Origin: Anolis carolinensis
Lineage: Eukaryota
Direction of reading: 5' to 3'
Length of the DNA stretch: 64,000 bases
Assembly (NCBI RefSeq): GCF_035594765.1
Contig: NC_085842.1
Location: 295,105,749-295,169,748 of the forward strand
The position numbers were made by a program, and so were the translations under genes. Positions within the stretch are counted from its first letter, which is position 1. Every line of letters begins with the position of its first letter. Shown here in pieces: positions 18,346 through 63,671 of the stretch. The notes below the pieces were generated by a model. The model worked only from the letters and a program-made list of their open reading frames with translations, had not been told where the DNA came from and made no database searches.

Positions 18346-19637
18346 ACAAAGGCAGTCCCTCGTTGTCCGAGTATGATGGTCCTCCAAGTTTAGTTTCTTG
18401 GCGGTGGGTACATAGGTATCTGTGAAGTCCTAATTTTGACCTGCATATTCTTCCACAGTGAGGGCATCTGTGGAAGGTGGTTCTGGTCAAGGTTGGCTTG
18501 ACGTGCCTTCCTCTTGGCATGTTTTTCCCTTTCGCCCTCCATTCGTGCCTCTTCAAATTCCACTGCACTGCTGGTCACAGCTGACCTCCAATTAGAGCGC
18601 TCAAGGACCCGGGCTTCCCAGTTTTCGGTGTCTATGTCACAGTTTTTGAGGTTAGCTTTATGCTCATCTTTATATCTCTTTTCCTGTCCACCAACATTCT
18701 GTTTTCTATTCTTGAGTTGGGAGTACAGTAACCACTTTGGGAGATGGTGATTGGGCATTCGGACAATGTGGCCAGTCCAACAGAGTTGATGGCGTAGGAG
18801 CATTGCTTCAGTACTGGTGGTCTTTTCTTCTTCCAGCACGCTGACATTTGTCCGCCTGTCTTCCCAAGAGATTTGCAGGATTTTTCAGAGGCAACGCTGA
18901 TGGAATCATTCCAGGAGTTGAGTGTGACATCTGTAGACAGTCCCCATTTTGCAGGCCTATAACAGGGTTGGGAGGACAACAGCTTTATAAACAACCACCT
19001 TGGTATCCCTATGGATGTCCTGATCCTCAAACATTCTCTTCTTCATTAGGAAAAATGCTAGGCTCACAGAGCTCAGGCGGTATTATATTTCAGTGTCAAT
19101 GTTGACTTTTGTGGAGAGGTGGCTGCCAAGGTAGCGGAAATGGTCAACATTTTCTAATGTTACACCATGAAACTGTATTTCTGGCATTGCAGAGGGATTG
19201 GCTGGTGCCTGCTGGAAGAGCACTTTGGTTTTCTCAATGTGCAATAAGAGGCCAAGCTTCTTGTATGGTTCTACAAATGTGTTTAGAGTGGCTTGTAGGT
19301 CTTCTTCTGAATACACACAGACAACATTATCATCGGCATTCTGGAGTTCTATAACAGATATTGTTGTGACCTTGGTTTTGGCTTTCAATCTGCTGAGGTT
19401 AAATAGCTTGCCATCTTTCCAATAGATGATTTCCACTCCGGTGGGAAGCCTCTCATCAACAAGATGAAGTATCATAGTGATGAAGATGGAAAATAAGGTT
19501 GGAGCAATAACACAATCCTGTTTGACATCTGATTCCACCTTAAATGAGTCACTTTTGGAACCATTGCTGTCCAGACTGTTGCTATCATGTCATTGTGGAG
19601 GAACTGCAGGATGTTCACAAATTGGTCAGGGTATCCA
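18346..19637 (-). mobile_element. 5'-truncated, degenerate RTE-clade LINE (RT C-half plus C-terminal zinc finger)
   Basis: ORF pieces 'VKQDCVIAPTLFSIF...ELQNADD...VDHFRYLGS', 'LCWTGHIVRM' and 'CPHCGRICRSKLGLHRYLCTH', broken by stops and frameshifts. Confidence 0.95.
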
Positions 19638-20377: not shown

Positions 20378-20512
20378 CAGTGGTTCTCAACCTGGGGTCC
20401 CCTGATGTTTTTGGCCTTCAACTCCCAGAAATCCTAACAGCTGGTAAACTGGCTGGGATTTCTGGGAGCTGTAGGCCAAAAACATCTGGGGACCCCAGGT
20501 TGAGAACCACTC
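20378..20512. mobile_element. hAT-Charlie MITE
   Basis: TIR CAGTGGTTCTCAACCTGGGGTCCCC; TSD CTCTAGTA/CTGTAGTA. Confidence 0.92.
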
Positions 20513-23664: not shown

Positions 23665-23888
23665 GGGTTGTTGTATGTTTTCCGGGCGGTATGGCCCAGA
23701 AGTATTCTCTCCTGATGTTTCGCCCACATCTATGGCAAACATCCTCAGAGGTTACCTCACAACCTCTGAGGATGCCTGCCATAGACGTGGGTGAAACGTC
23801 AGGAGAGAATACTTCTAGAACATGGGCATACAGCCCGGAAAACATACAACAACCCTGTGATCCCGGCCATGAAAGTCTTCGACAACAC
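23665..23888. mobile_element. Penelope-like element, inverted pLTR fragments
   Basis: Inverted arms 23665-23753 and 23761-23855; 12-bp direct repeat ATAGAACAGACC at 23653-23664 and 23889-23900. Confidence 0.9.
23763..23803 (+). ncRNA. Minimal type I hammerhead ribozyme motif (Penelope-associated)
   Basis: CCT-CTGAGGA-T-GCCTGC(catagac)GTGGGT-GAAA-CGTC-AGG; predicted cut after GUC at 23800. Confidence 0.7.
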
Positions 23889-30271: not shown

Positions 30272-30588
30272 AAAAGGTAAAAATTTCCCCTTGACATTAA
30301 GTCTAGTTGTGTCCGACTCTGGGGGTTGGTGCTCATCTCCATTTCTAAGCCAAAGAGCTGGCATTGTCCATAGACACCTCCAAGGTCATGTGGCTGGCAT
30401 GACTGCATGGAGCGCCGTTACCTTCCCACCGGAGCGGTACCTATTGATCTACTCCCATTTGCATGTTTTCAAACTGCTAGGTTGGCAGAAGCTGGAGCTA
30501 ACAGTGGGAGTTCACCATGCTACCTGGATTCAAACCAATGACATTTCGGTCAGCAAGTTCAGCCGCTCAGCGGTTTAACCCACTGCGC
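30272..30588 (-). mobile_element. Sauria SINE
   Basis: Full body with AGGTAA tail remnant at left and tRNA-like head at right. Confidence 0.95.
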
Positions 30589-31110
30589 AAATATGAACAT
30601 CAAAAATTGATAACATTGTATTGGTACAAATGATTAACACTTGCAAATATTTAATTGAAATAAAAGTTAAGTATTGCACATAAACACAGTATGAAAAGAT
30701 ATTAAGATAACAGCAATCATGTACAAAACAAAGTATGGATGATTCAGTTTTAACAAAATGAATGCATAATTCTGAAGGAGGATTCCTTAAAGTGATTGCA
30801 CACCAGGTATATTGTGTTCATGCTTTGGTAATCACCAAGAATTGAAAATTCCACATATAACTGTCATGATCTGTTATGCTATTGTTTTGGAGAAATATAT
30901 TTACTTAGCTAACCTTTTTGCAATCTATTATTGTTCTGTTTTTTGGGGGGGAAATCGGGTTTGGTTAATTTTTGGAGAGGAAGCTACATCTAGACTCCAG
31001 CCAGTTCTTAATTTCTGTGGTTTGAACTCTGAGCTTATCCAAAGAGTAATGAGGGAAACAAACTGATAAACTCAAAGATCACAAGTATGAAATTTGAGTT
31101 AAAAGCACAA

Positions 31111-31153
31111 TGTTTCACATTTTTATAATTCTTTCTCTTTTTTATAGGTAAGT
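31111..31153 (+). other. Recursive splice site (ratchet point) TAG|GTAAGT, junction 31147/31148
   Basis: Branch-like TTCAC (A at 31117), ~40-nt AG-free zone, tract TTCTTTCTCTTTTTTA, then TAG abutting a consensus GTAAGT. Confidence 0.75.
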
Positions 31154-31269
31154 ACTTCATTCTTTATTCTTCTTCTTTAAGCTGACAGAAAATACATGAC
31201 TTGCCTGAATTGTATTTCTAACAAAGTATATAAAAGCAACCAAATGAGTGAAATATGTTGTCTACTCAG
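31148..31269 (+). other. Putative 122-nt RS-exon (poison exon)
   Basis: Ends at strong donor CAG|GTAAGG (31270-31275). Length is not a multiple of 3; inclusion after a phase-2 exon gives an immediate TAA. Confidence 0.65.
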
Positions 31270-31927
31270 GTAAGGATTTCAAAACATTATCACAATGTCC
31301 TTGTTTATTTATGAAAGTTGGTATCAGAAAGTTTGTTTGTCAGAGTTTGTTGTGCGGAAATAGAAAATATAGTTGATTTTCATGATACATTAACTTCTGC
31401 CTCTTGACTGCCCACAAGAAAAAGAGGTGCTCTTGACTCTGCTCTGAAAGGACCAATTGGCTATTAATCATGGAAGCACACTTTCCTTCTTTGTCAAAAC
31501 AGAAGGAGGAAAGGAAATGGTTTGGAAACAAAATGTTATTGCATAGTAAGGAAACTCTGTGGCCCAAAGGTTCCAGAAACATCCCACAGTGTATTTTTAG
31601 TCTAAGATGTGTTCAACAATGACTTTAAAATTTTCTATTCTTCAGGGTCATCTTCCACATCTTTTGTGGAGAAGACCCCCAAACGCTTGTGTGTTTTGGA
31701 AAATTCTGAGGAGCATTTCTTTCAATTAATATTATTATAGGATACTATATTAACTTGTTGGATCAGATTTTTTCCTTATAGGAACTAAATTTGAATATCC
31801 AATGTATAGTTGCACCTTGCATAGGAAGATGGGTGTTGGCAAGCAGGCAGGCATCAGGGATGAGGAAAAATGCTTGGGGAAGATTACCTGTTTTAAAATT
31901 ATTGGTTTTCTATACCATATATATACT

Positions 31928-32249
31928 GATGGTGCAGCAGGTTAAACCGCTGAGCTTCTGAACTTGCTGATGGAAAGGTTGGCAGTTCGAATCCGGGGGG
32001 TGGGGTGAGCTCCCGCTGTTAGCCCCAGCTTTTGCCAACCTAACAGTTTGAAAACATGCAAATGTGAGTAGATCAATAGGTACCATTCCGGCAGGAAGGT
32101 AATGGTGCTCCATGCAGTCATACCGGCCACACAACCTTGGAGGCATCTATGGACAATGCCGGCTCTTTGGCTTAGAAATGGAGATAAGCACCAACCCTTA
32201 GAGTCAGACACAATTAGTCTTAATGTCAGGGGAAAACCTTTACCTTTAC
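31928..32249 (+). mobile_element. Sauria SINE
   Basis: tRNA-like head with GTTCGAATCC; (ACCTTT)n tail. Confidence 0.95.
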
Positions 32250-33104
32250 TATACCATGTACATTGTTTTGAGGGAGAGGGGGTATTTGCTGCTTTGCCTC
32301 AGACAGCAAAATGTCTTGTATTTGCTCTGCTTTCAGGGAAACTTGTCTGCCATTACTGAGCTTCTTAGTGGAGCACATCTGATAAACATTTGAAGAAAAA
32401 TAGGGTTCCTTAAATAGGTTTCAAAAATAGTGATGACTTTACAACATAATTTCGTCTGCTTGAGCTTCCATAATGGTCATTCACAAAGGTGGACTGAACA
32501 AAATCTCTCCCCCCGCCCCTATTTTACTATCCTTTTTCTTAACTGTTGAAGGTAGGGAGTATAACAAGAATATTTAGAGGAATAGAGTTCAGGGTTTTTA
32601 AAGGTGACAGCAGTCAGTGAGGGTGGCCACATTTTTCTTGACACCAACATGGGACAACCCTTTCCATTGCCTGACCAGTTGAAGACATGCTAGACAAGCC
32701 TATATAAAGTCCGCCTCAGATCTTATGAGAGACAGATCTAATATAGACCTCTATGAGAGGTGCACATTACATTAGCCTGCCATGTGTATTCCCTCCCTAT
32801 CCAATAGAGTTGGGAGCAGAAAGAGCAGATGTTGACTGGGGTTGGCAGAGTGAAAACTGAATATGGTTTCTGTACTTTTAATTATTATGTAGAAACAGGA
32901 ATTTCAGCAAGTGTTGGTTTAATCTGTTTATGGGACAACCAATGCTCACTTATATTCCATGTTCCACACAACTATTCAAGATAAAGAAGCCTTCTCCAGA
33001 TTTCACTCTGGCAGCCTTAGCTGCTGGTCACATTTGCATGATAGATAGAGTCCTATCTGAGATCATTTTGCTGCATACTAAGAGCTTCAGGATCAGTGTA
33101 TTAT

Positions 33105-40779: not shown

Positions 40780-43256
40780 TCCTGAACAAATCACTTTCTG
40801 GTCAGGGCTAGTATCACAGCTACAACTAACCCCTGCAGGGGTGGACCTATTAAAATGATCTGCTCTCGAAGGCTAATGGATCCTTTGAGATTCCAGGAGG
40901 CCTTAGAGGGCTCTATGGCTGGCATAACTGACTATCTTGTTGAATCCCTGGTCAATAATTGGAATAAAAATCTAACCAGATCTATCAAAACAGTTGCTCC
41001 CATATGTCCTCTCCGAATTGTTACAAATCATGCTCCCGGTATACAAAGACCCTCAGGGGAAATGAAATGGCAAGAACAACTAGAGTGCAGATAGTGGAAA
41101 ACCTGACTTTTATGTGACAAGACAAGATATATTGCCTCATCACACTCGAGCATGAATCCTCTTTAAATCTGATTTCTGCCTCCTGCAGAATTTTGGGGGT
41201 TGTAGTTTGGTGAGGCCCAGGACCTGTCTGGCTGAGCTGTTTAAAGCCCCCTCCCTAAAGCGGATTTAAAGTGGATATAAATTGGATCCAAGCTCTAGTG
41301 TGATGAGGTCCATAGAGGATGTTTTCGCCCCTATAAGGTGGCAATACACGTAGCGAAGAAAGCTGTCTTCTCTGCACACATGGCACCTGCAGATTCATGT
41401 CCAGCTGAGCTGTTCAGAGTAATGAGAGGCTAAATTCAGGTGCCCTCCCCTCCAAACCCATTGCTATGTCTTTAATAAACTTTTTGCAGATAAAATCTCA
41501 CACAAAAAATGACTTAGATGATTTTATTGGAGCAGAAGTCAACGGCTAGGTGTCCAGCAACTCTGTGAGTAGGATTACACTGGATCAGTTTCAATTAGTA
41601 AGTACTGTTGATGTGGACAAGCTGCTAGGGCAAGTAAGGAGGAAAACCTGCATTCTTTATCCCTGTCCTTCTTCGCTGATCATCCAGGGAGAGAATGCAG
41701 TGAAATCTCAAATAAAATAAATTATCAGTGCATTTCGCAGGGAAGGGAATTTTCCACCTTGTTTAGAAGAAGTAGTAGTTAGACCACTGCTGAAAAACCC
41801 TGGATCCCTTGGACCTTAATAATTACAGACCAGTGTCTAACCTTCTTTTTTTGGGGCAAGGTGTTTGAGAAGGTGGTTGCTCTCTAATTCCAGACATACT
41901 TCCTTGACCTATTTCAAACTGGCTTCAGAGCAGGATACGGAGTTGAGACTGCTTGGTCGCCTTAGTGGATGATCTTCATCTTAACATGGACAAGGAGTGT
42001 TTATCCCTGTTGGTGCATTTAGATTTCTCAGCTGCTTTTGATACCATCAACCATGGTGTCCTTCTGGAATGTCTTGAGGGTTTAGGAATCAGAGGTACTG
42101 TGTTGCTATGGTTCCAGCTGTACCTCTCAGACAGCTTCCAAATGGTGGTGCTTGGGGATAGCAGCTGCTCAAAATAGGAGATGTTATATAGCATCCCACA
42201 AATTGCCATTCTATCCCCAATGCTTTTTAACATTGGCATGAAACAGCTGGGAGAGATCATATGGAGGCGTGGGGCGGGGTGCTACAAATATATTTCTCCA
42301 TGCCTTCAAAATCAGCTCTTGCTAACATGTTCTCTGAAGGAAGCAATGGGCTGGATGAGGAAGAACAAATTGGAACTGAATCCAGACAAAACAGAAGTGC
42401 TTGCCATGAAGAGTCCTAATCTGCGGATGGAGATATGTCAGCCAGGTCTGGATGGGGTTACACTCCTTCTGAAAGACTGTGTTCACAGTTCCAAGACTGT
42501 AGGAATGCTCCTGGATCTGTCTCTTCAAATGTCAGCTCTGATAGATGTGATGGTCAGGAATGCTTACTACCAGCTTCGGCTGACCTGCCAGCTGTCCCCC
42601 TTCCTAGAATCCGAGGACCTGAAGATGGTAGTACATGCACTGGTAACCTCAAGGTTGGGCTTCTGCAATGCGCTTTACATTGGGCTACCTCTGTACCAAG
42701 TTTAGAAACTCCAATTTGTTCAAAATGCAGCAGCCAGATTGGTCACAGGAACACCAAGGAATAAGCATGTTACACCTATTCTAAAGTCGCTCCACTGGTT
42801 GCCAGTTTTTTTCTGGGCAAAGTACAAAGCGTTGGTTTTGAGTTTTAAAGCTAGGGCTTGGGTCCAGGTTACCTGCAGGATTGCCCTCTCCCCTACAATT
42901 TGCCCCAAACACTTAGGTCCTCTGAGGGGCATATATTCTAACCTGCCAGAACCTGACTGGCAACTGTTAGCCAGAGGACCTTCTCAGCAGCTGCCCCAAG
43001 ACTGTGGAATGACTTGCTGGAAGAGCTCCGACAGCTAGATCAGCTGTCAGAATTTAAGACACAACTGAAGATCCATCTCTTCTGGCAAATCTACACAGTC
43101 AATTTTAAGTTGTGCATTTTAATCTGCACTTTATCCATGGATTTTAACTCATATTTTAACTCTGTGTATGTATTTGTATGTCTTTTAACCGCATTATATT
43201 TCTTGCTTTAATGATGTTGTATCCCGCCTCAACCCACAGGGAGAGGCAGGTATTAA

Positions 43257-57215: not shown

Positions 57216-57327
57216 TTCCTATCTTAGGCCTTTTGTACACGTTTTCTTCTTTGACTAAAACATTTTTGTATATTTTACAGTTATCTGTAGTTTAGCCATT
57301 TGGATTTTAAAATATCTTATGAGTAAT

Positions 57328-57646
57328 GTAAAGGTAAAGGTTTCCCCTGACGTTAAGTCCAGTCATGTCTGACTCTGAGGGTTGGTGCTCATTTCCATTT
57401 CTAAGCCAAAGAGCCGGCGTTGTCCGTAGACACCTCCAAGGTCATGTGGCCGGCATGACTGCATGGAGCGCCGTTACCTTCCTGCCGGAGCGGTACCTAT
57501 TGATCTACTCACATTGGCATGTTTTTGAACTGCTAGGTTGGCAGGAGCTGGAGCTAACAGCAGCTGCTCATGCCGCTCCCGGGGTTTGAACCTGGGATCT
57601 TTCGGTCTCCAGCTCAGTGCTTTAACGCACTTCGTCACCGGGGCTC
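57328..57646 (-). mobile_element. Sauria SINE
   Basis: Full length; TSD TTATGAGTA at 57317-57325 and 57647-57655. Confidence 0.97.
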
Positions 57647-57691
57647 TTATGAGTACAGAACCTCTAACATGGGCACATTTCCAAGGTAACA

Positions 57692-57900
57692 GTCCCCTTT
57701 GCACTCTTCAGTTCTAGCGCTACAATTCTAGTTTAACTGCCATGGCTGCATCCTATGGAATCCTGGGACATGTAGCTTGATGAGGCACTAAAGAATATTA
57801 AATATTCCTCTCCATGCTCCAGATCCCAAACTTCTATAGGATGGAACTGTGGTAGGTAAAGTGGAATCATGCCACTATAGTTGTTAACATGAATGAGGCC
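57692..57900. mobile_element. Harbinger-like palindromic MITE
   Basis: Same internal arms as 7375-7593. Confidence 0.65.
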
Positions 57901-58105
57901 AAGTTCTAGTTTATCTCACAAATCTTAGAAGGTGTAACATTTATACACTGAAACCACTAATACTGAATCAGGCAGAACAATACCTGGGACAATATTAGTC
58001 AGGACCAACTCTAAGTTCGATGAGGCCTCTGGCAGATCTGCCTGGTATCCCACTTATGTCAGTTGGGCCCTATTGTTGAGTTTTCTTGGCAGCTGTAATG
58101 GACAC

Positions 58106-58885
58106 TAGAGATGGGCTTTCAAGACTTACCTTGTTCTGTTTTGTGTCCTGGCTTTCTTCGAGGCCCTGATTTGTTTTCGTCTGACCTCCCAAAATTGGAT
58201 GGTCAGACATTTGTTTTGTTTTGCTTTGTTTTTTGTTTTCGGAGGGGGCGGGGAAGTGCCGGCCAAGGCCACAGCTAGTGCTGCTCAAATGCCTGGTAAG
58301 GAGCCGGGCAAAGGGAGAGGAGGGAGGCACAGGACGACCCAGCCACCCCCAACCTCCCCCCCTGCCAGGCCTGTGCAAGTAGGCCCAAAGCCTGCACCCT
58401 TAAGGCACAGGCTTTGGGCTATACCTAGCCTGGCCTCGCAGGGCCTACAGACGATTGTCGAGTAAGGATTGCTCCTTTCTTGACAATCGTCTTTAGGCCC
58501 TACGAGGCCCGGGTGCGTAGGCCCAAAGCCTGCTCCCATAGGCCCAAAGCTCCCAGGCCTACGGGTGCATGCTTTGGGCTTAGGCACCCGGGCCTTGCTG
58601 GACCTACAACCGATTGCAGAATAAGGAGTGATCTTTACTCAGCAATCGGCTGCAGGCCCTGTGAGGCCCGGGTGTGTAGGGCCTACAGGTGCAGTTTTTG
58701 GGCCTACACACCTGGGCCTTGCAGGGCCTACAGCTGATCGATCTAAAAGGCAGGCTTGGAGCTGATATCGGCTCCCGCCTGCCTTTTGTTTCATTGGGGG
58801 TCTTTCTGTTTTGTGCCATCCAAATGGATGATACGAGACAGAAACATGAATGAAACATGTGAGACAGATACCGCGCACATCTCTA
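58106..58885. mobile_element. Non-autonomous hAT (Ac-like) element with internal GC-rich minisatellite
   Basis: TIRs TAGAGATGGGC / GCACATCTCTA; perfect 8-bp TSD ATGGACAC at 58098-58105 and 58886-58893. Confidence 0.92.
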
Positions 58886-59004
58886 ATGGACACATTAACA
58901 TTTATCTTGGTGCCAAGCCTGCCATTTGTACCTACTGAAGCAATACCAGCTGAAAACTAGCATGGTCCACAGTTTGGATATTAAACTACTATTCCAGACA
59001 GCAA

Positions 59005-59180
59005 AGCTGGAATCCCTACTCAGCCATGGAAACCCACTGGGTGACCTTGGGCAAGTCACATCTCACAGTTTCAGGGGAAGGCAAAGGCAAACCCTCTGAA
59101 CAAATCTTTCCAATAAAACCCCATGAAACCCTTAGGATTGCATTGGATCAGAAATGACTTGTAGACACACAGCAGCAATA
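59005..59180 (+). mobile_element. 5'-truncated tRNA-derived SINE
   Basis: Homologous to 14047 and 48975 copies. Confidence 0.75.
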
Positions 59181-60793
59181 ATACAATACTACAAAAGGAA
59201 TATTATTCTCAAAGTGATTGTTTCTGTGTAGTAAAAGTCACCGAATGCATTTCAGAAAATAGTATTCTTCCATGAAGGGCAGACTGATAAAATATGTAAA
59301 GTCAGCTTTCCCAGATGAAATTAATAACAGTTTTGTGCCTAATGAATACACACGGGGACTCTGAGAACTGTTGGTATTGCTTCATACTTGGAACTACCTT
59401 TTCATTTCATTGTTTAAATGTAAGGCCAGGACAGATGTCACTGGTGGGAAGCCATGTGACCAAAGCTGCCACATGCTAATGACAGTACCTGATGTGGGAG
59501 CACAAAGTGTACCTGGAACCTTTGAGACTTGAATATAGTAATATCTCTTCTTTTTTAAAAAAACATTTTTATAATCAGGAACCACTGGCTAATAGCACTA
59601 GTCTTGGAGCAGAAAGACCTTGCAATACAGGATAATTTCATGCCATCAACCTTCTCGTTGTCTTGTCAAAATGGTATCTATGGAAATGAATCAATACTAA
59701 TAGCCTGTTGGTAGCAGCCGAGGTCCAAACCATGGTGTAGTGATTAGCTGTGCTTTAGTGCCTCTAAAAATAGAAAGAAATAATAAATGGGGGCCAAGAT
59801 ACTTCCTGTATACAATAGAATGAGCTTTATTGAAGAAAACATGTTTTGAGAGATAGAAATTTTTACAAATGGGAACTGTGAGCAAACAAACATTATTGGA
59901 AGTTTGGAAATGGACCAAGAAAAGTGCAGCTCACCCCTTTTCTGAAGCAAGGGCCCTGGATTGTGTCCTATTTTAAAAAATTTACCAATAGCAGATAAAC
60001 ACACCTCTTCCAGTAAAAGCATTATTTGGTGGTTGGGAAATAGAATTAGTCCTTTTAAAATTATAACATCCTCCCTCCCTTTTTGCAGAATCAATGAAGC
60101 AATTTCTATCTGTTGAAAGGTTGACATCTCTTAAACTGTAATTTCTTATGATACTCTAGTGTCTAAATGATAGTTTTCCTCCAGCTGCCAACATTTAGAA
60201 AAAATGATGACTTTTCTTTTGGTATAAAGAGAAAATACCATTACATTTTTTATCGCACTTCTGTCAATTTAATATGTGGACTGGGAGTTCTTCTTGGATT
60301 GATGATGGCATAGTTGAGGAAAGAAACATTACTTTATTGCTGCATGCAGTCCTTTGTTCCTTCTGAATTGTCTTGTAAACTTAAACCAAAGAGAGGCATT
60401 ATCCTTACTATTGGATTGACCTTTTGGCATTCAGATAGATTGTACTTTAAAGTTCAGTAAATTTTAAATTATGTTGACAGACAGGAACTCAATTTGATGT
60501 AAATATGTCTATATTCACAGGAGCCTCCCAATTACTTTGGAGTCAGGGTATATCTACATGATGAAATTGATAGATGTAGCAGAAATTAATTTATTGTTAG
60601 ATAAGAGAATTTTGCAAAGACTGGAAATCCCTTACAGACTTTTGGCAAAAAAGAAAGAAAAGCAAAGGACTTGAAAAGTTTTGGATTTGATGACTAAAAA
60701 AATAGGCCATTAAAAGAGGGGATTATGTGGAAATTTCATTGAGAGAGGCATGAATAACTATATGTCTAAGATATAACCATGCTGGTCTGGAAT

Positions 60794-61127
60794 CAGAGGC
60801 GGTTCAACCACCAGGCCAACTAGGCAGTTGCCTGTGGCGCCATCTTGTTGGGGGTGCCATTGAGGCAACTCCTGTCTCCTGCAGCCTGCCTCCACAAGGT
60901 ATTGAACTGCTTTTTCTGCTGATTTGTTGTAAAACATGATATTTATTGCTTAATTTGTAAAATCCTAATGTAATTTGATGTTTAATAGGCTTTTCCTTAA
61001 TCCCTCCTTATTATCAAACATTTTCGCTTATCCAACGCCTTTATTTTTCAGTGATTGGTTTTTTTTTGGGGGGGGGGCGCCAAAATTCTGTTCGCCTACA
61101 CTTGAAAAATACCTAGGGCCGGCTCTG
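60794..61127. mobile_element. Non-autonomous hAT element carrying a Tigger-like internal segment
   Basis: TIRs CAGAGGCGG / CCGGCTCTG; perfect TSD TCTGGAAT at 60786-60793 and 61128-61135. Confidence 0.9.
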
Positions 61128-61135
61128 TCTGGAAT

Positions 61136-61245
61136 ATCAGCATGCAGAGGAATCTTGTAGTATTTCAGAGAACAAAGTTGATACGAAAGCTTATGCTACC
61201 AACTTTGTTGTATTAGTCTCCAAGATGCTACAATATCCCATTATA
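61136..61245. mobile_element. Penelope-like (Neptune-type) inverted remnant
   Basis: 'tacgaaagcttatgctacc...ttagtctccaagatgctacaa' plus an inverted partial copy; only the GAAA half of a hammerhead core remains. Confidence 0.55.
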
Positions 61246-61247
61246 TA

Positions 61248-61324
61248 CAGGGTGTTTGAAAAAGAACTCCCTATTCACTATTTAATTTAAATGGTGAATA
61301 GGAAGTTCTTTTTCAAACACCCTG
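61248..61324. mobile_element. 77-bp mariner-type fold-back MITE
   Basis: TA-CAGGGTGTTTGAAAAAGAACT...AGTTCTTTTTCAAACACCCTG-TA; near-perfect palindrome. Confidence 0.92.
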
Positions 61325-63336
61325 TATATGAGACTTGGTATCTGCTAGGATTTGGTTCCTGGCTGTCCCATGGATACAAAAATCTGTGTGATCCAACAGC
61401 CAGTAGAGTGTCTGCTGTGGACTCATCTTGTTGTGTTTCAAATAATATAATAATAACAACAACAACTATTTATACCCCGCTCCATCTCCCGAAGGACTCG
61501 GAGCGGCTTACACTGGGACAAGCCCAAAACAGTATTACATCAATAAAACAGTAACACAATAAAGTAGATAGCCAGTAACACAATAGATACGTAATAGCTA
61601 GCTAGCTTTGAGGTAGGAATTCATTTAAAAGGCCAATTTAAGAATGCCTGGATTGCCTGAACCAAGTCTACTGTGCCCATACTCTCTGTAAAAAATAACA
61701 ATAAGAAAACATTAGATGCTTGGGAGTAGTAGTTAGTTGGTAATACAAAAAAAAAAAACCCAAAGAGTTTGATGGCAGATTAAAGACAAAGCAGTTTCAA
61801 ATGATATAATTCATTGTGATCGAAATAGGCATGTGCCAAATAAGATCTGTTAGTCTTTATCACCCAGCAAGACCGCTTATTTTGTTTGTTCCAAGATGCC
61901 TATATGAGATCAAACCACATTTACTTTTAAAGAAAGCTATTTTAAAATATGTGTTTCTCCAATAAGTTTGTTTAAGTGGGCCAACAAGTTCTTTGGTTGT
62001 AGTTGTTCATTATTCGATTCCCAAAGTAGAAAATATGCACAATAAACACTAAACTCACCTAGCCTACAGGTATGAACTGTGTGCTATGTTAATAAATTAC
62101 TAGAGAGATATTAACAGTTTTAGCCAGCCTCGCCCCAAACTGAAACCGGCCAAAGCTGTGATAAATTGCAAGATACATGAATTGTAAGCACAGAATAGGA
62201 TTGTATATTGCCTTAACATCTCATTAATTCTCAATAGCAGCTTAGACAAACAGCCATTAGCTGAGGTTATTGGATCTTAAGACTTAACCAACAAATGTCT
62301 TGCAAAAAGCAAATATTAACGACCAGCTACAGAGCAACAGATGTTGGCCATTGGATAAGCCTTGCACTTTTATGCTTATTGCATTCCCATTATTAAATTC
62401 AAAGCCTCTAGTGTTTAAATAGCATTACAGTTATGAAACAAATGAAAACAAATACCTAGAAAAACCAAGATTAAGAGTAACATTTTGGGGGAGAGTTCAG
62501 AAATGTCCAGTTTGTTTGAAGAATCTAAAGAAGGGTAAATTTAATGTATCTATCCTGAACCAATTGTAGTCCAAAAGGCTTTTTTCATATCATTTTTAGC
62601 TCAGCAGACTACAGTTCGCAATTCGCCTGGGCTGTGAAATTCACAGCCCATACAATGTCGCTTTTCCAAGCTCTGAACCAGACAAATACACTCTCAATAT
62701 AAGATTGTTTTCTAACCCTCACCTCAGCAGCTCTGGGCAACCCTATGTAAACCTGATTTTACTGTGCAGTCACTCTTTATTAAAACCAAATAGCCTGTTT
62801 TAAAAACCCTCTTCAAAGCATTTAGTAACTAATTAAGACACTGCTCTAACAAGCATTTATAAATGGGCATTAAGAGACAGCTTTGAAATTTACAAGATCA
62901 AATAAGGCAGCTATCCAAAGCAGAGCACTGTGTAATTTCTGTTTAGAATTAATAAAAGCCTAAAAGCTTTTGGTTTTTGGCCTACCACCTATATGTTACA
63001 TATAATTATGTGGTTCTTTTTCTTTGGATTTTTAAAAGCTAGTCAAGGTGCCAAATGCTTTCCCCAAATAGGTTCAGCACCTTGGATACTTCCTTTAAAC
63101 ATTTAGGCTGAAGCCTAGCATGAATTCACCATCCTGAGTTGGGTGCCTTCAATAAGAAAACAACTCCAGAAGAAAGGCTTTTTGAGCAGAAAGATGTCTT
63201 TCAAGAAAAATATTAAGCAGCTCCTTACAAAGATTTTGTTCAGAAATCTAACCTTCTATTAGTCCTTGTGCATTTTGGGAGTTTGGAGAGGGACCAACAT
63301 TATGTAAAAATACCATATTGCTATATGGCATGTATA

Positions 63337-63671
63337 GGGGCCTCCAGTGGAACAGTGGGTTAAAGCGCTGAGCTGCTGAACTTGTGGACCAAAAGGTTGC
63401 AGGTTCAAATCCGGGGAGCAGAATGAGCACCCACTGTTACCCCCAGCTTCTGCCAACCTAGCAGTTCGAAAACATGCAAATGTGAGTAGATCAATGGGTA
63501 CTGCTCTGCTGGGGAAGGTAACGGCGCTCCATGCAGACATGCCAGCCACATGACCTTGGATGTTTTCTATGGACAACGCTGGCTCTTCGGCTTAGAAATG
63601 GAGATGAGCACCAACCCCCAGAGTCGGACACAACTGGACTTAACGTCAGGGGAAACCATTACCTTTTTATT
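63337..63671 (+). mobile_element. Sauria SINE
   Basis: Full length; TSD TGGCATGTATAG/TGGCATTTATAG. Confidence 0.97.

Follow-up and report, generated by a model that had tools for sequence, protein, structure and literature searches.

Within the 64-kb window (the whole stretch of DNA analysed, 64,000 nt), we identified a candidate recursive splice (RS) site enclosed by two SINEs in opposite orientation. Our preferred reading, to which we give a probability of roughly 60%, is that this is a likely ancient RS site with a 122-nt stop-containing exon in a probable long plus-strand intron, possibly that of Ntm, that two Sauria-type SINEs probably inserted around it independently and by chance, and that the predicted pairing of the two copies would leave the spliced mRNA materially unchanged. 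The SINE bracket is probably incidental, a tolerated and near-neutral coincidence at an RS site.

The candidate recursive splice site and its exon

The candidate site lies on the plus strand at 31147/31148, where a polypyrimidine tract and 3' splice site (31110 to 31147; 85% pyrimidine over the 20 nt that precede AGGT, the AG itself lying at 31146-31147) run directly into GTAAGT (31148 to 31153), the 5' splice site that would be reconstituted after a first splicing step. Together they form the composite TATAG|GTAAGT (YAG|GTAAGT). The likely RS-exon, 122 nt long (31148 to 31269, plus strand) with stops in all three frames, is closed by the donor CAG|GTAAGG (31267 to 31275, plus strand; junction at 31269/31270). 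When splice signals were scored with a rough matrix of splice-site frequencies, this donor ranked first of 3,441 plus-strand GTs, the RS acceptor ranked eighth of 4,246 plus-strand AGs, and the exon had the top score among the 17 candidate exons in the window (6 plus, 11 minus). A pattern of polypyrimidine tract plus AGGTRAG, composed post hoc once the site was known, matched once in 64 kb, at the RS site, against 0.01 expected and a match in 1 of 100 shuffles. AGGTAAGT by itself occurred at chance level in the window (3 seen vs 2.19 expected).

Several further features of this kind were observed. Runs X6 and X1 of the sequencing data described below carry a TCTC insertion allele at 31133 in the acceptor's polypyrimidine tract (~half of X1 depth), and the tract is strong in both alleles. 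A second pyrimidine tract lies within the RS-exon (31154-31188), with AGs at 31180-31181 and 31187-31188 that could give 88- or 81-nt exons with the 31269 donor, without the recursive GTAAGT. Weaker AG|GTRAG sites preceded by pyrimidine-rich sequence were found at 4990 (minus) and 12271 (plus); the latter lies within a repeat copy and is probably repeat-derived.

The plus strand of the window has an excess of G and T (z 3.1 and -3.7), as is expected of a non-template strand. Pfam was searched with 69 frames, namely 67 chosen among the 175 of at least 70 aa and two candidate exons, and no host-gene match was found among them; 67 frames had no match and two matched RVT_1, one of these below the curated cut-off. 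An Rfam search of the window returned no matches. Judged by its composition and content, the window looks intronic and is probably part of a long plus-strand intron; vertebrate RS sites are expected in introns of >50 kb.

The published RS profile, from a mouse set of 20 RS sites in long introns of neuronal genes, consists of AGGTAAGT plus a polypyrimidine tract (PMC8797253, in the part of the paper available), and the motif at 31147/31148 fits it. Two of the 20 mouse sites end in ...TTTTTAT before AGGT: Cadm2, with GTGAGT, a 73-nt exon and a TGG donor, and Ntm, with GTAAGT, a 123-124-nt exon (chr9:29674281-29674404) and a CAG|GTAGGT donor. Compared by eye, Ntm is the only one of the 20 to resemble the lizard site in three respects: ...TTTTTAT before AGGTAAGT, an exon length that differs from 122 nt by no more than 2 nt, and a CAG|GTA donor. 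The lizard and Ntm sites also share a strong tract and a probable long intron free of coding exons. They differ in that the exon upstream of the Ntm site ends in AAG, whereas the exon joined to the lizard site seemingly lacks a terminal AG, and in that the lizard site is enclosed by inverted squamate-specific SINEs. The ungapped match to mouse Ntm is 10 of 20 nt in a low-complexity tract, the comparison covering the 20 nt of mouse flank given in that part of the paper. The lizard site may be the ortholog of the Ntm site, which we treat as the best lead only.

Mouse RS-exon primers for Cadm2, Hs6st3, Ncam1 and Lsamp did not match the lizard exon by eye, and a full-text literature search for the 14-nt junction motif returned no papers. 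Candidate orthologs were also sought among metagenome contigs with a pattern of RS site plus donor; the four matches were set aside as chance, none of them resembling the lizard exon (z -1.85 to 0.12; best blastn E 0.23).

Assembled contigs from 24 sequencing runs, none recorded as RNA, were available, and contigs from four runs (X1, X4, X6 and X14) were aligned to 30560-33100. One contig, X4 record 19 (176 nt, depth 3.3), aligns to 31147-31311 from its letter 12 and extends 42 nt beyond the 31269 donor. Its first 11 letters, known by number and not by sequence, are unmatched and directly abut the RS site on the 5' side. Five X4 contigs are listed in unique sequence, and of their 10 ends the one at 31147 alone is unmatched; X4 depth in the bins around the RS site comes entirely from this contig. 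This suggests the shape of an exon-to-RS-site splicing intermediate, as seen in a single contig at depth 3.3 from a run whose RNA status is guessed. Since the alignment begins at 31147 and not 31146, the joined exon would not end in AG. X6 record 25 (30957-31715) crosses the RS site unspliced, and X1 appears DNA-like, with a single 1.4-kb contig at 33.5x and both SINE heads present.

A different account of the same motif is that AG|GTAAGT does not work as an RS site and either marks an exon of cryptic or poison type or goes unused, with the SINEs forming an ordinary intronic inverted repeat that perhaps keeps a cassette exon skipped. Stops in all frames, a strong donor of its own and the second pyrimidine tract with its two AGs would suit such an exon; the metagenome contig search retrieved no ortholog, and junction support comes from one contig. 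That contig, however, runs past the donor, neither stopping nor joining there, as an RS intermediate would, and the motif profile and the resemblance to Ntm fit an RS site. We consider the cryptic-exon account unlikely and regard the recursive site at 31147/31148 as probably functional. The label of recursive splice site was an inference of the preliminary description; the motif anatomy and the one contig support it, short of proof.

Three further points concern the sequencing runs. A saw-tooth step was considered as the reason why runs X4 and X5 hold ~0.6 of the loop words, and was dropped: X4 contigs have depths of 3.7-3.8 upstream and 3.3-4.9 downstream, and contig depth cannot show level. 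An A>G difference at 31709, in the loop outside the SINEs, is present in X4, X6 and X14 and not in X1; it is probably part of a SNP haplotype rather than an edit, because in X4 and X6 it is linked to 31685 G>A and to a 3-nt deletion at 31501. Finally, a contig from X14, a run labelled as a different organism, runs into the S2 head (see below) with only two differences (31700-31960), so that either the organism shares the insertion or the label is loose.

The inverted SINE pair and its predicted helix

Both SINE copies were located by repeat search and blastn. S1 (30272 to 30588, minus strand) is full length, with its head toward the loop, and would form the upstream helix arm on the plus-strand transcript; S2 (31928 to 32249, plus strand) is also full length, has the 3' end ACCTTTACCTTT and would form the downstream arm. 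The repeat search placed the arms at 30273-30586 and 31934-32247, 314 nt that are 85% complementary with 1,347 nt between them, and blastn gave 84.7% over 314 nt, confirming the inverted pair that had been described by eye around the RS site and RS-exon. It is the longest of the 164 inverted pairs in the window. The count of four copies in 64 kb was likewise confirmed by blastn; all are full length, at 30.3 kb (minus), 31.9 kb (plus), 57.3 kb (minus) and 63.3 kb (plus). The latter two, S3 and S4, form a second inverted pair at 57325-63670 (85%, 5.7 kb apart) that could serve as a natural editing control, and S3 carries a clean 10-nt target-site duplication, CTTATGAGTA.

Sauria SINEs are marked by an (ACCTTT)n tail, a target-site duplication starting with T, and a stretch of T ~10 nt upstream, and the Sauria/Squam1 reference clone ACA-1-15 is 333 nt long (PMC13295347, in the part available). 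S1 and S2, at 314-322 nt, agree with the ~330 nt expected of this Bov-B partner family, and both have the tail, S2 ending in ACCTTTACCTTT and S1 in TTTACCTTTT. The S2 duplication is the 9-nt CTATACCAT (8-nt TATACCAT when counted from T), at 31910 to 31918 on the left and 32249 to 32257 on the right, both on the plus strand, with the T-rich stretch TTATTGGTTTT just before the left copy. No clear duplication was found in the flanks of S1, in which it differs from the family signature. Copy number is very high: besides the four copies in the window, 29,124 contigs of run X1 align to 30560-33100, and depth reaches millions over S2 vs ~33 in the unique flanks. ARAGORN found no tRNA genes in the window, a result that is uninformative for a decayed SINE head. 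Family membership rests on tail, length, duplication and abundance, the two copies being placed by signature; on these features the Sauria identity proposed in the preliminary description is supported.

Folding 30272-32249 gave a stable, imperfect predicted duplex of ~285 bp, in line with the earlier suggestion that the two copies pair as dsRNA. The minimum free energy structure has 286 inter-arm pairs (-822 kcal/mol) and the ensemble 284 expected pairs; flipping S2 raises the energy to -517 kcal/mol, and the loop by itself folds at -306. Exact complementarity between the arms extends over at most 24 consecutive nt, or 40 if G·U is counted. The helix begins 559 nt ahead of the acceptor and 658 nt beyond the donor, and the RS-exon is predicted to sit in an open loop of 1.35 kb. 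The pair has the geometry of inverted Alu repeats, with opposite orientation, high identity, short distance and a stable predicted helix. The predicted probability of being unpaired with both SINEs, with the loop only and with S2 flipped was 0.24, 0.22 and 0.25 at AG|GTAAGT, 0.18, 0.20 and 0.17 at the 31269 donor, and 0.40, 0.43 and 0.54 in the polypyrimidine tract. The helix is accordingly predicted to leave the accessibility of the RS site and donor unaltered.

In the preferred reading, the upstream exon would splice to 31148, the 31269 donor serving to define the RS-exon. The GTAAGT thereby reconstituted would then be used to remove the remaining intron. S2 ends 1,101 nt past the RS site, a distance transcribed in tens of seconds at typical Pol II rates, and since S2 would be complete 1.1 kb past the site, pairing of the arms can probably precede the first step of splicing. 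That step would take S1 away in one lariat, and S2 would follow in the next.

The helix would probably be A-to-I edited, as other intronic inverted SINEs are. Some editing is likely because lizard brain is heavily hyper-edited, with 122,793 unique sites, 8,663 of them in SINEs (PMC5625713, in the part available). A>G and T>C differences within S2 were examined as candidate edits and rejected: they occur in all four aligned runs including the DNA-like X1, five of them at S2-private positions, and on both grounds we take them to come from other SINE copies. The S1 head end is present in X1 and X4 (records 1 and 17), and flank-anchored contigs run into S2 in X1, X6 and X14. The latter list no A>G in S2, reaching only ~20-30 nt into it, and S1 coverage is ~30 nt, so that they are uninformative on editing.

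Chance, selection and the effect on splicing

The preliminary description had allowed that the arrangement could be a chance placement. For any one point, the probability of lying between the arms of an inverted pair no more than 1,347 nt apart is 0.0009 at the A. carolinensis density of Sauria elements, taken as a stand-in (78,442 copies per 1,799 Mb; PMC13295347, in the part available), 0.0018 at the density of the window and 0.0011 by simulation. Because this per-site chance is low, a chance reading needs a look-elsewhere argument. Over 20 RS sites the chance is 1.7-3.5%, rising to 21-39% if gaps of up to 5 kb are allowed; ~2,300 such inverted pairs are expected genome-wide at the A. carolinensis density, and four random copies in 64 kb give an inverted pair this close in 12% of cases. 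When all repeat families are counted, 4% of the window lies in loops of at most 1.5 kb (the S1/S2 loop included) and 15% in loops of at most 5 kb. The arrangement is uncommon at any one site and unsurprising once across very many windows scanned.

The arms themselves were without sign of selection for pairing. S1 and S2 are 84.5% identical, and the other five pairs of the four copies range from 81.1 to 87.0%. The 48 non-Watson-Crick positions between the arms include 19 G·U and 20 A·C (p=1.0), a balance that shows no preference for pairing. Of changes private to one copy, S2 carries 21 and S1 carries 10. S1 and S2 share 12 of the 21 two-versus-two columns, four of the 12 in the poorly aligned tail, and we read the shared columns as subfamily differences, since each of the two alleles at 32049 is found frequently in further copies. 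Another explanation considered was gene conversion between S1 and S2; it was set aside given the many private changes and the commonness of the 32049 alleles elsewhere, although with four copies an old conversion may still have contributed. Among the matches listed (15 of 44 joints), no joint corresponding to an empty S2 site was found.

An effect of the helix on splicing could take several forms. In one, the helix competes with definition of the RS-exon and measurably lowers RS use in this lizard lineage by looping the exon out, giving more one-step removal of the intron in a manner tunable by ADAR or other dsRNA-binding proteins. There is precedent in the inverted Alu pairs around exons, for which close pairs are associated with skipping (PMC13019944) and minigene deletion lessens skipping (PMC2533698; both in the parts available, with the TBXT case cited there). 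The lizard pair resembles them in having two opposite ~300-nt SINEs, ~85% alike, each within ~0.6 kb of the exon and with a long predicted duplex; it differs in that the elements are Sauria and not Alu, that the exon between them, an RS-exon, is non-coding and could be skipped with no change to the mRNA, and that editing and skipping in the lizard case are putative. No passage on distance dependence was found in PMC3941102. The closeness of the ~285-bp predicted helix to both splice signals, the low per-site chance of bracketing and the X6 contig that is unspliced across the RS site all fit this looping out. Against it, a junction-shaped contig exists in X4, neither splice signal is masked in the predicted fold and both are still near consensus, and a signature of selection for pairing is absent. 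We judge such a reduction in RS use to be unlikely, though of the alternatives it is the one to be taken most seriously.

The proposal of the preliminary description that the SINEs may have rewired the RS site found no support, given an RS-like junction in X4, a run in which the upstream SINE, at least, is present, the lack of selection for pairing, and a predicted accessibility that is the same with the helix. Under the chance reading that we prefer, the helix might sometimes hide the RS-exon, and the intron would then be removed in one step to give an identical mRNA. Because looping out leaves the mRNA the same, the insertions would be tolerated rather than selected. Reduced recursive splicing need not be neutral, however, since cadm2a mRNA was halved when RS was blocked in zebrafish (review PMC5126111, in the part available).

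The helix could instead drive back-splicing of the 122-nt exon, from 31269 to 31148, and yield appreciable circular RNA, which we consider very unlikely and a weaker rival than looping out. The geometry is that of the textbook, a strong acceptor and donor with an inverted repeat on either side; the inverted-repeat circRNAs ZKSCAN1, HIPK3 and EPHB4 likewise have complementary repeats in their flanks and consensus splice sites, and repeats of 30-40 nt suffice in minigenes (PMC4201285, in the part available). In that same part of the paper, however, ZKSCAN1 exons of at most 400 nt circularised poorly or not at all, the smallest quoted successes being 336 and 360 nt, and the lizard exon has 122 nt vs at least 336 nt for the quoted working single inserts. 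Forward splicing, of the kind suggested by the X4 contig, would moreover be expected to consume the acceptor. No 31269-to-31148 joint was present among the matches listed (15 of 44 joints, 12 of 58 table rows and 24 of 550 loose ends), which carries no weight as absence.

Least probable of all, we think, and barely to be expected, is that the helix promotes recursive splicing and has been retained for that, either because Pol II is slowed just past the RS-exon or because the first lariat is tethered. Reporters with inverted SINEs showed impaired Pol II elongation (PMC5080714, in the part available), and the end of S2, 1,101 nt past the RS site, would be suitably placed; yet the arms lack a selection signature, and mouse RS sites of the same type work without Sauria SINEs.

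Timing, precedent and neighbouring repeats

If the preferred reading is true, the gain would be modest: a probable lizard example of a mammalian-type RS site that tolerates a long enclosing RNA helix. S1 and S2 lie in different halves of a putatively recursively spliced intron, so intramolecular pairing would be confined to the interval between S2 transcription and the first splicing step, and as pairing would be limited to that interval, the level of S2 editing would report the timing of recursive splicing. The locus would in this way be a natural experiment on RS timing and on the sensitivity of RS-exon definition to looping. A bolder version, which we hold to be doubtful and somewhat less probable than a simple lowering of RS use, is that a lineage-specific inverted SINE helix gates a deeply conserved RS site, probably that of Ntm, and determines how often a giant neuronal intron is removed in two steps rather than one, perhaps by way of a helix stability that depends on temperature or on ADAR, with S2 editing as a clock for the first step.

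The components are known separately, namely vertebrate RS sites with an RS-exon, Sauria SINEs, and inverted SINEs around an exon. SINE-modulated recursive splicing, which the preliminary description had thought undescribed, was found neither in our literature searches nor by Alu or SINE terms within RS papers; these searches had thin coverage of subscription journals, and preprint supplements could list an orthologous site. The link between recursive splicing, skipping and circles is called open in a review (PMC5126111, in the part available).

Other repeats were also observed in the window. Decayed LINE fragments account for the RVT_1 matches, at 18393-19589 (minus) and 42178-43035 (plus), with E-values of 9.5e-09 and 0.0055. 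Short hairpin-forming elements at 20379-20511 and 23691-23823, with 56-nt arms (95%) and 63-nt arms (87%), are probably MITE copies. At 58380-58738 there is a GC-rich palindromic array with 133-nt arms 11 nt apart (75%) and further direct and inverted copies, which looks to be of MITE or foldback type.
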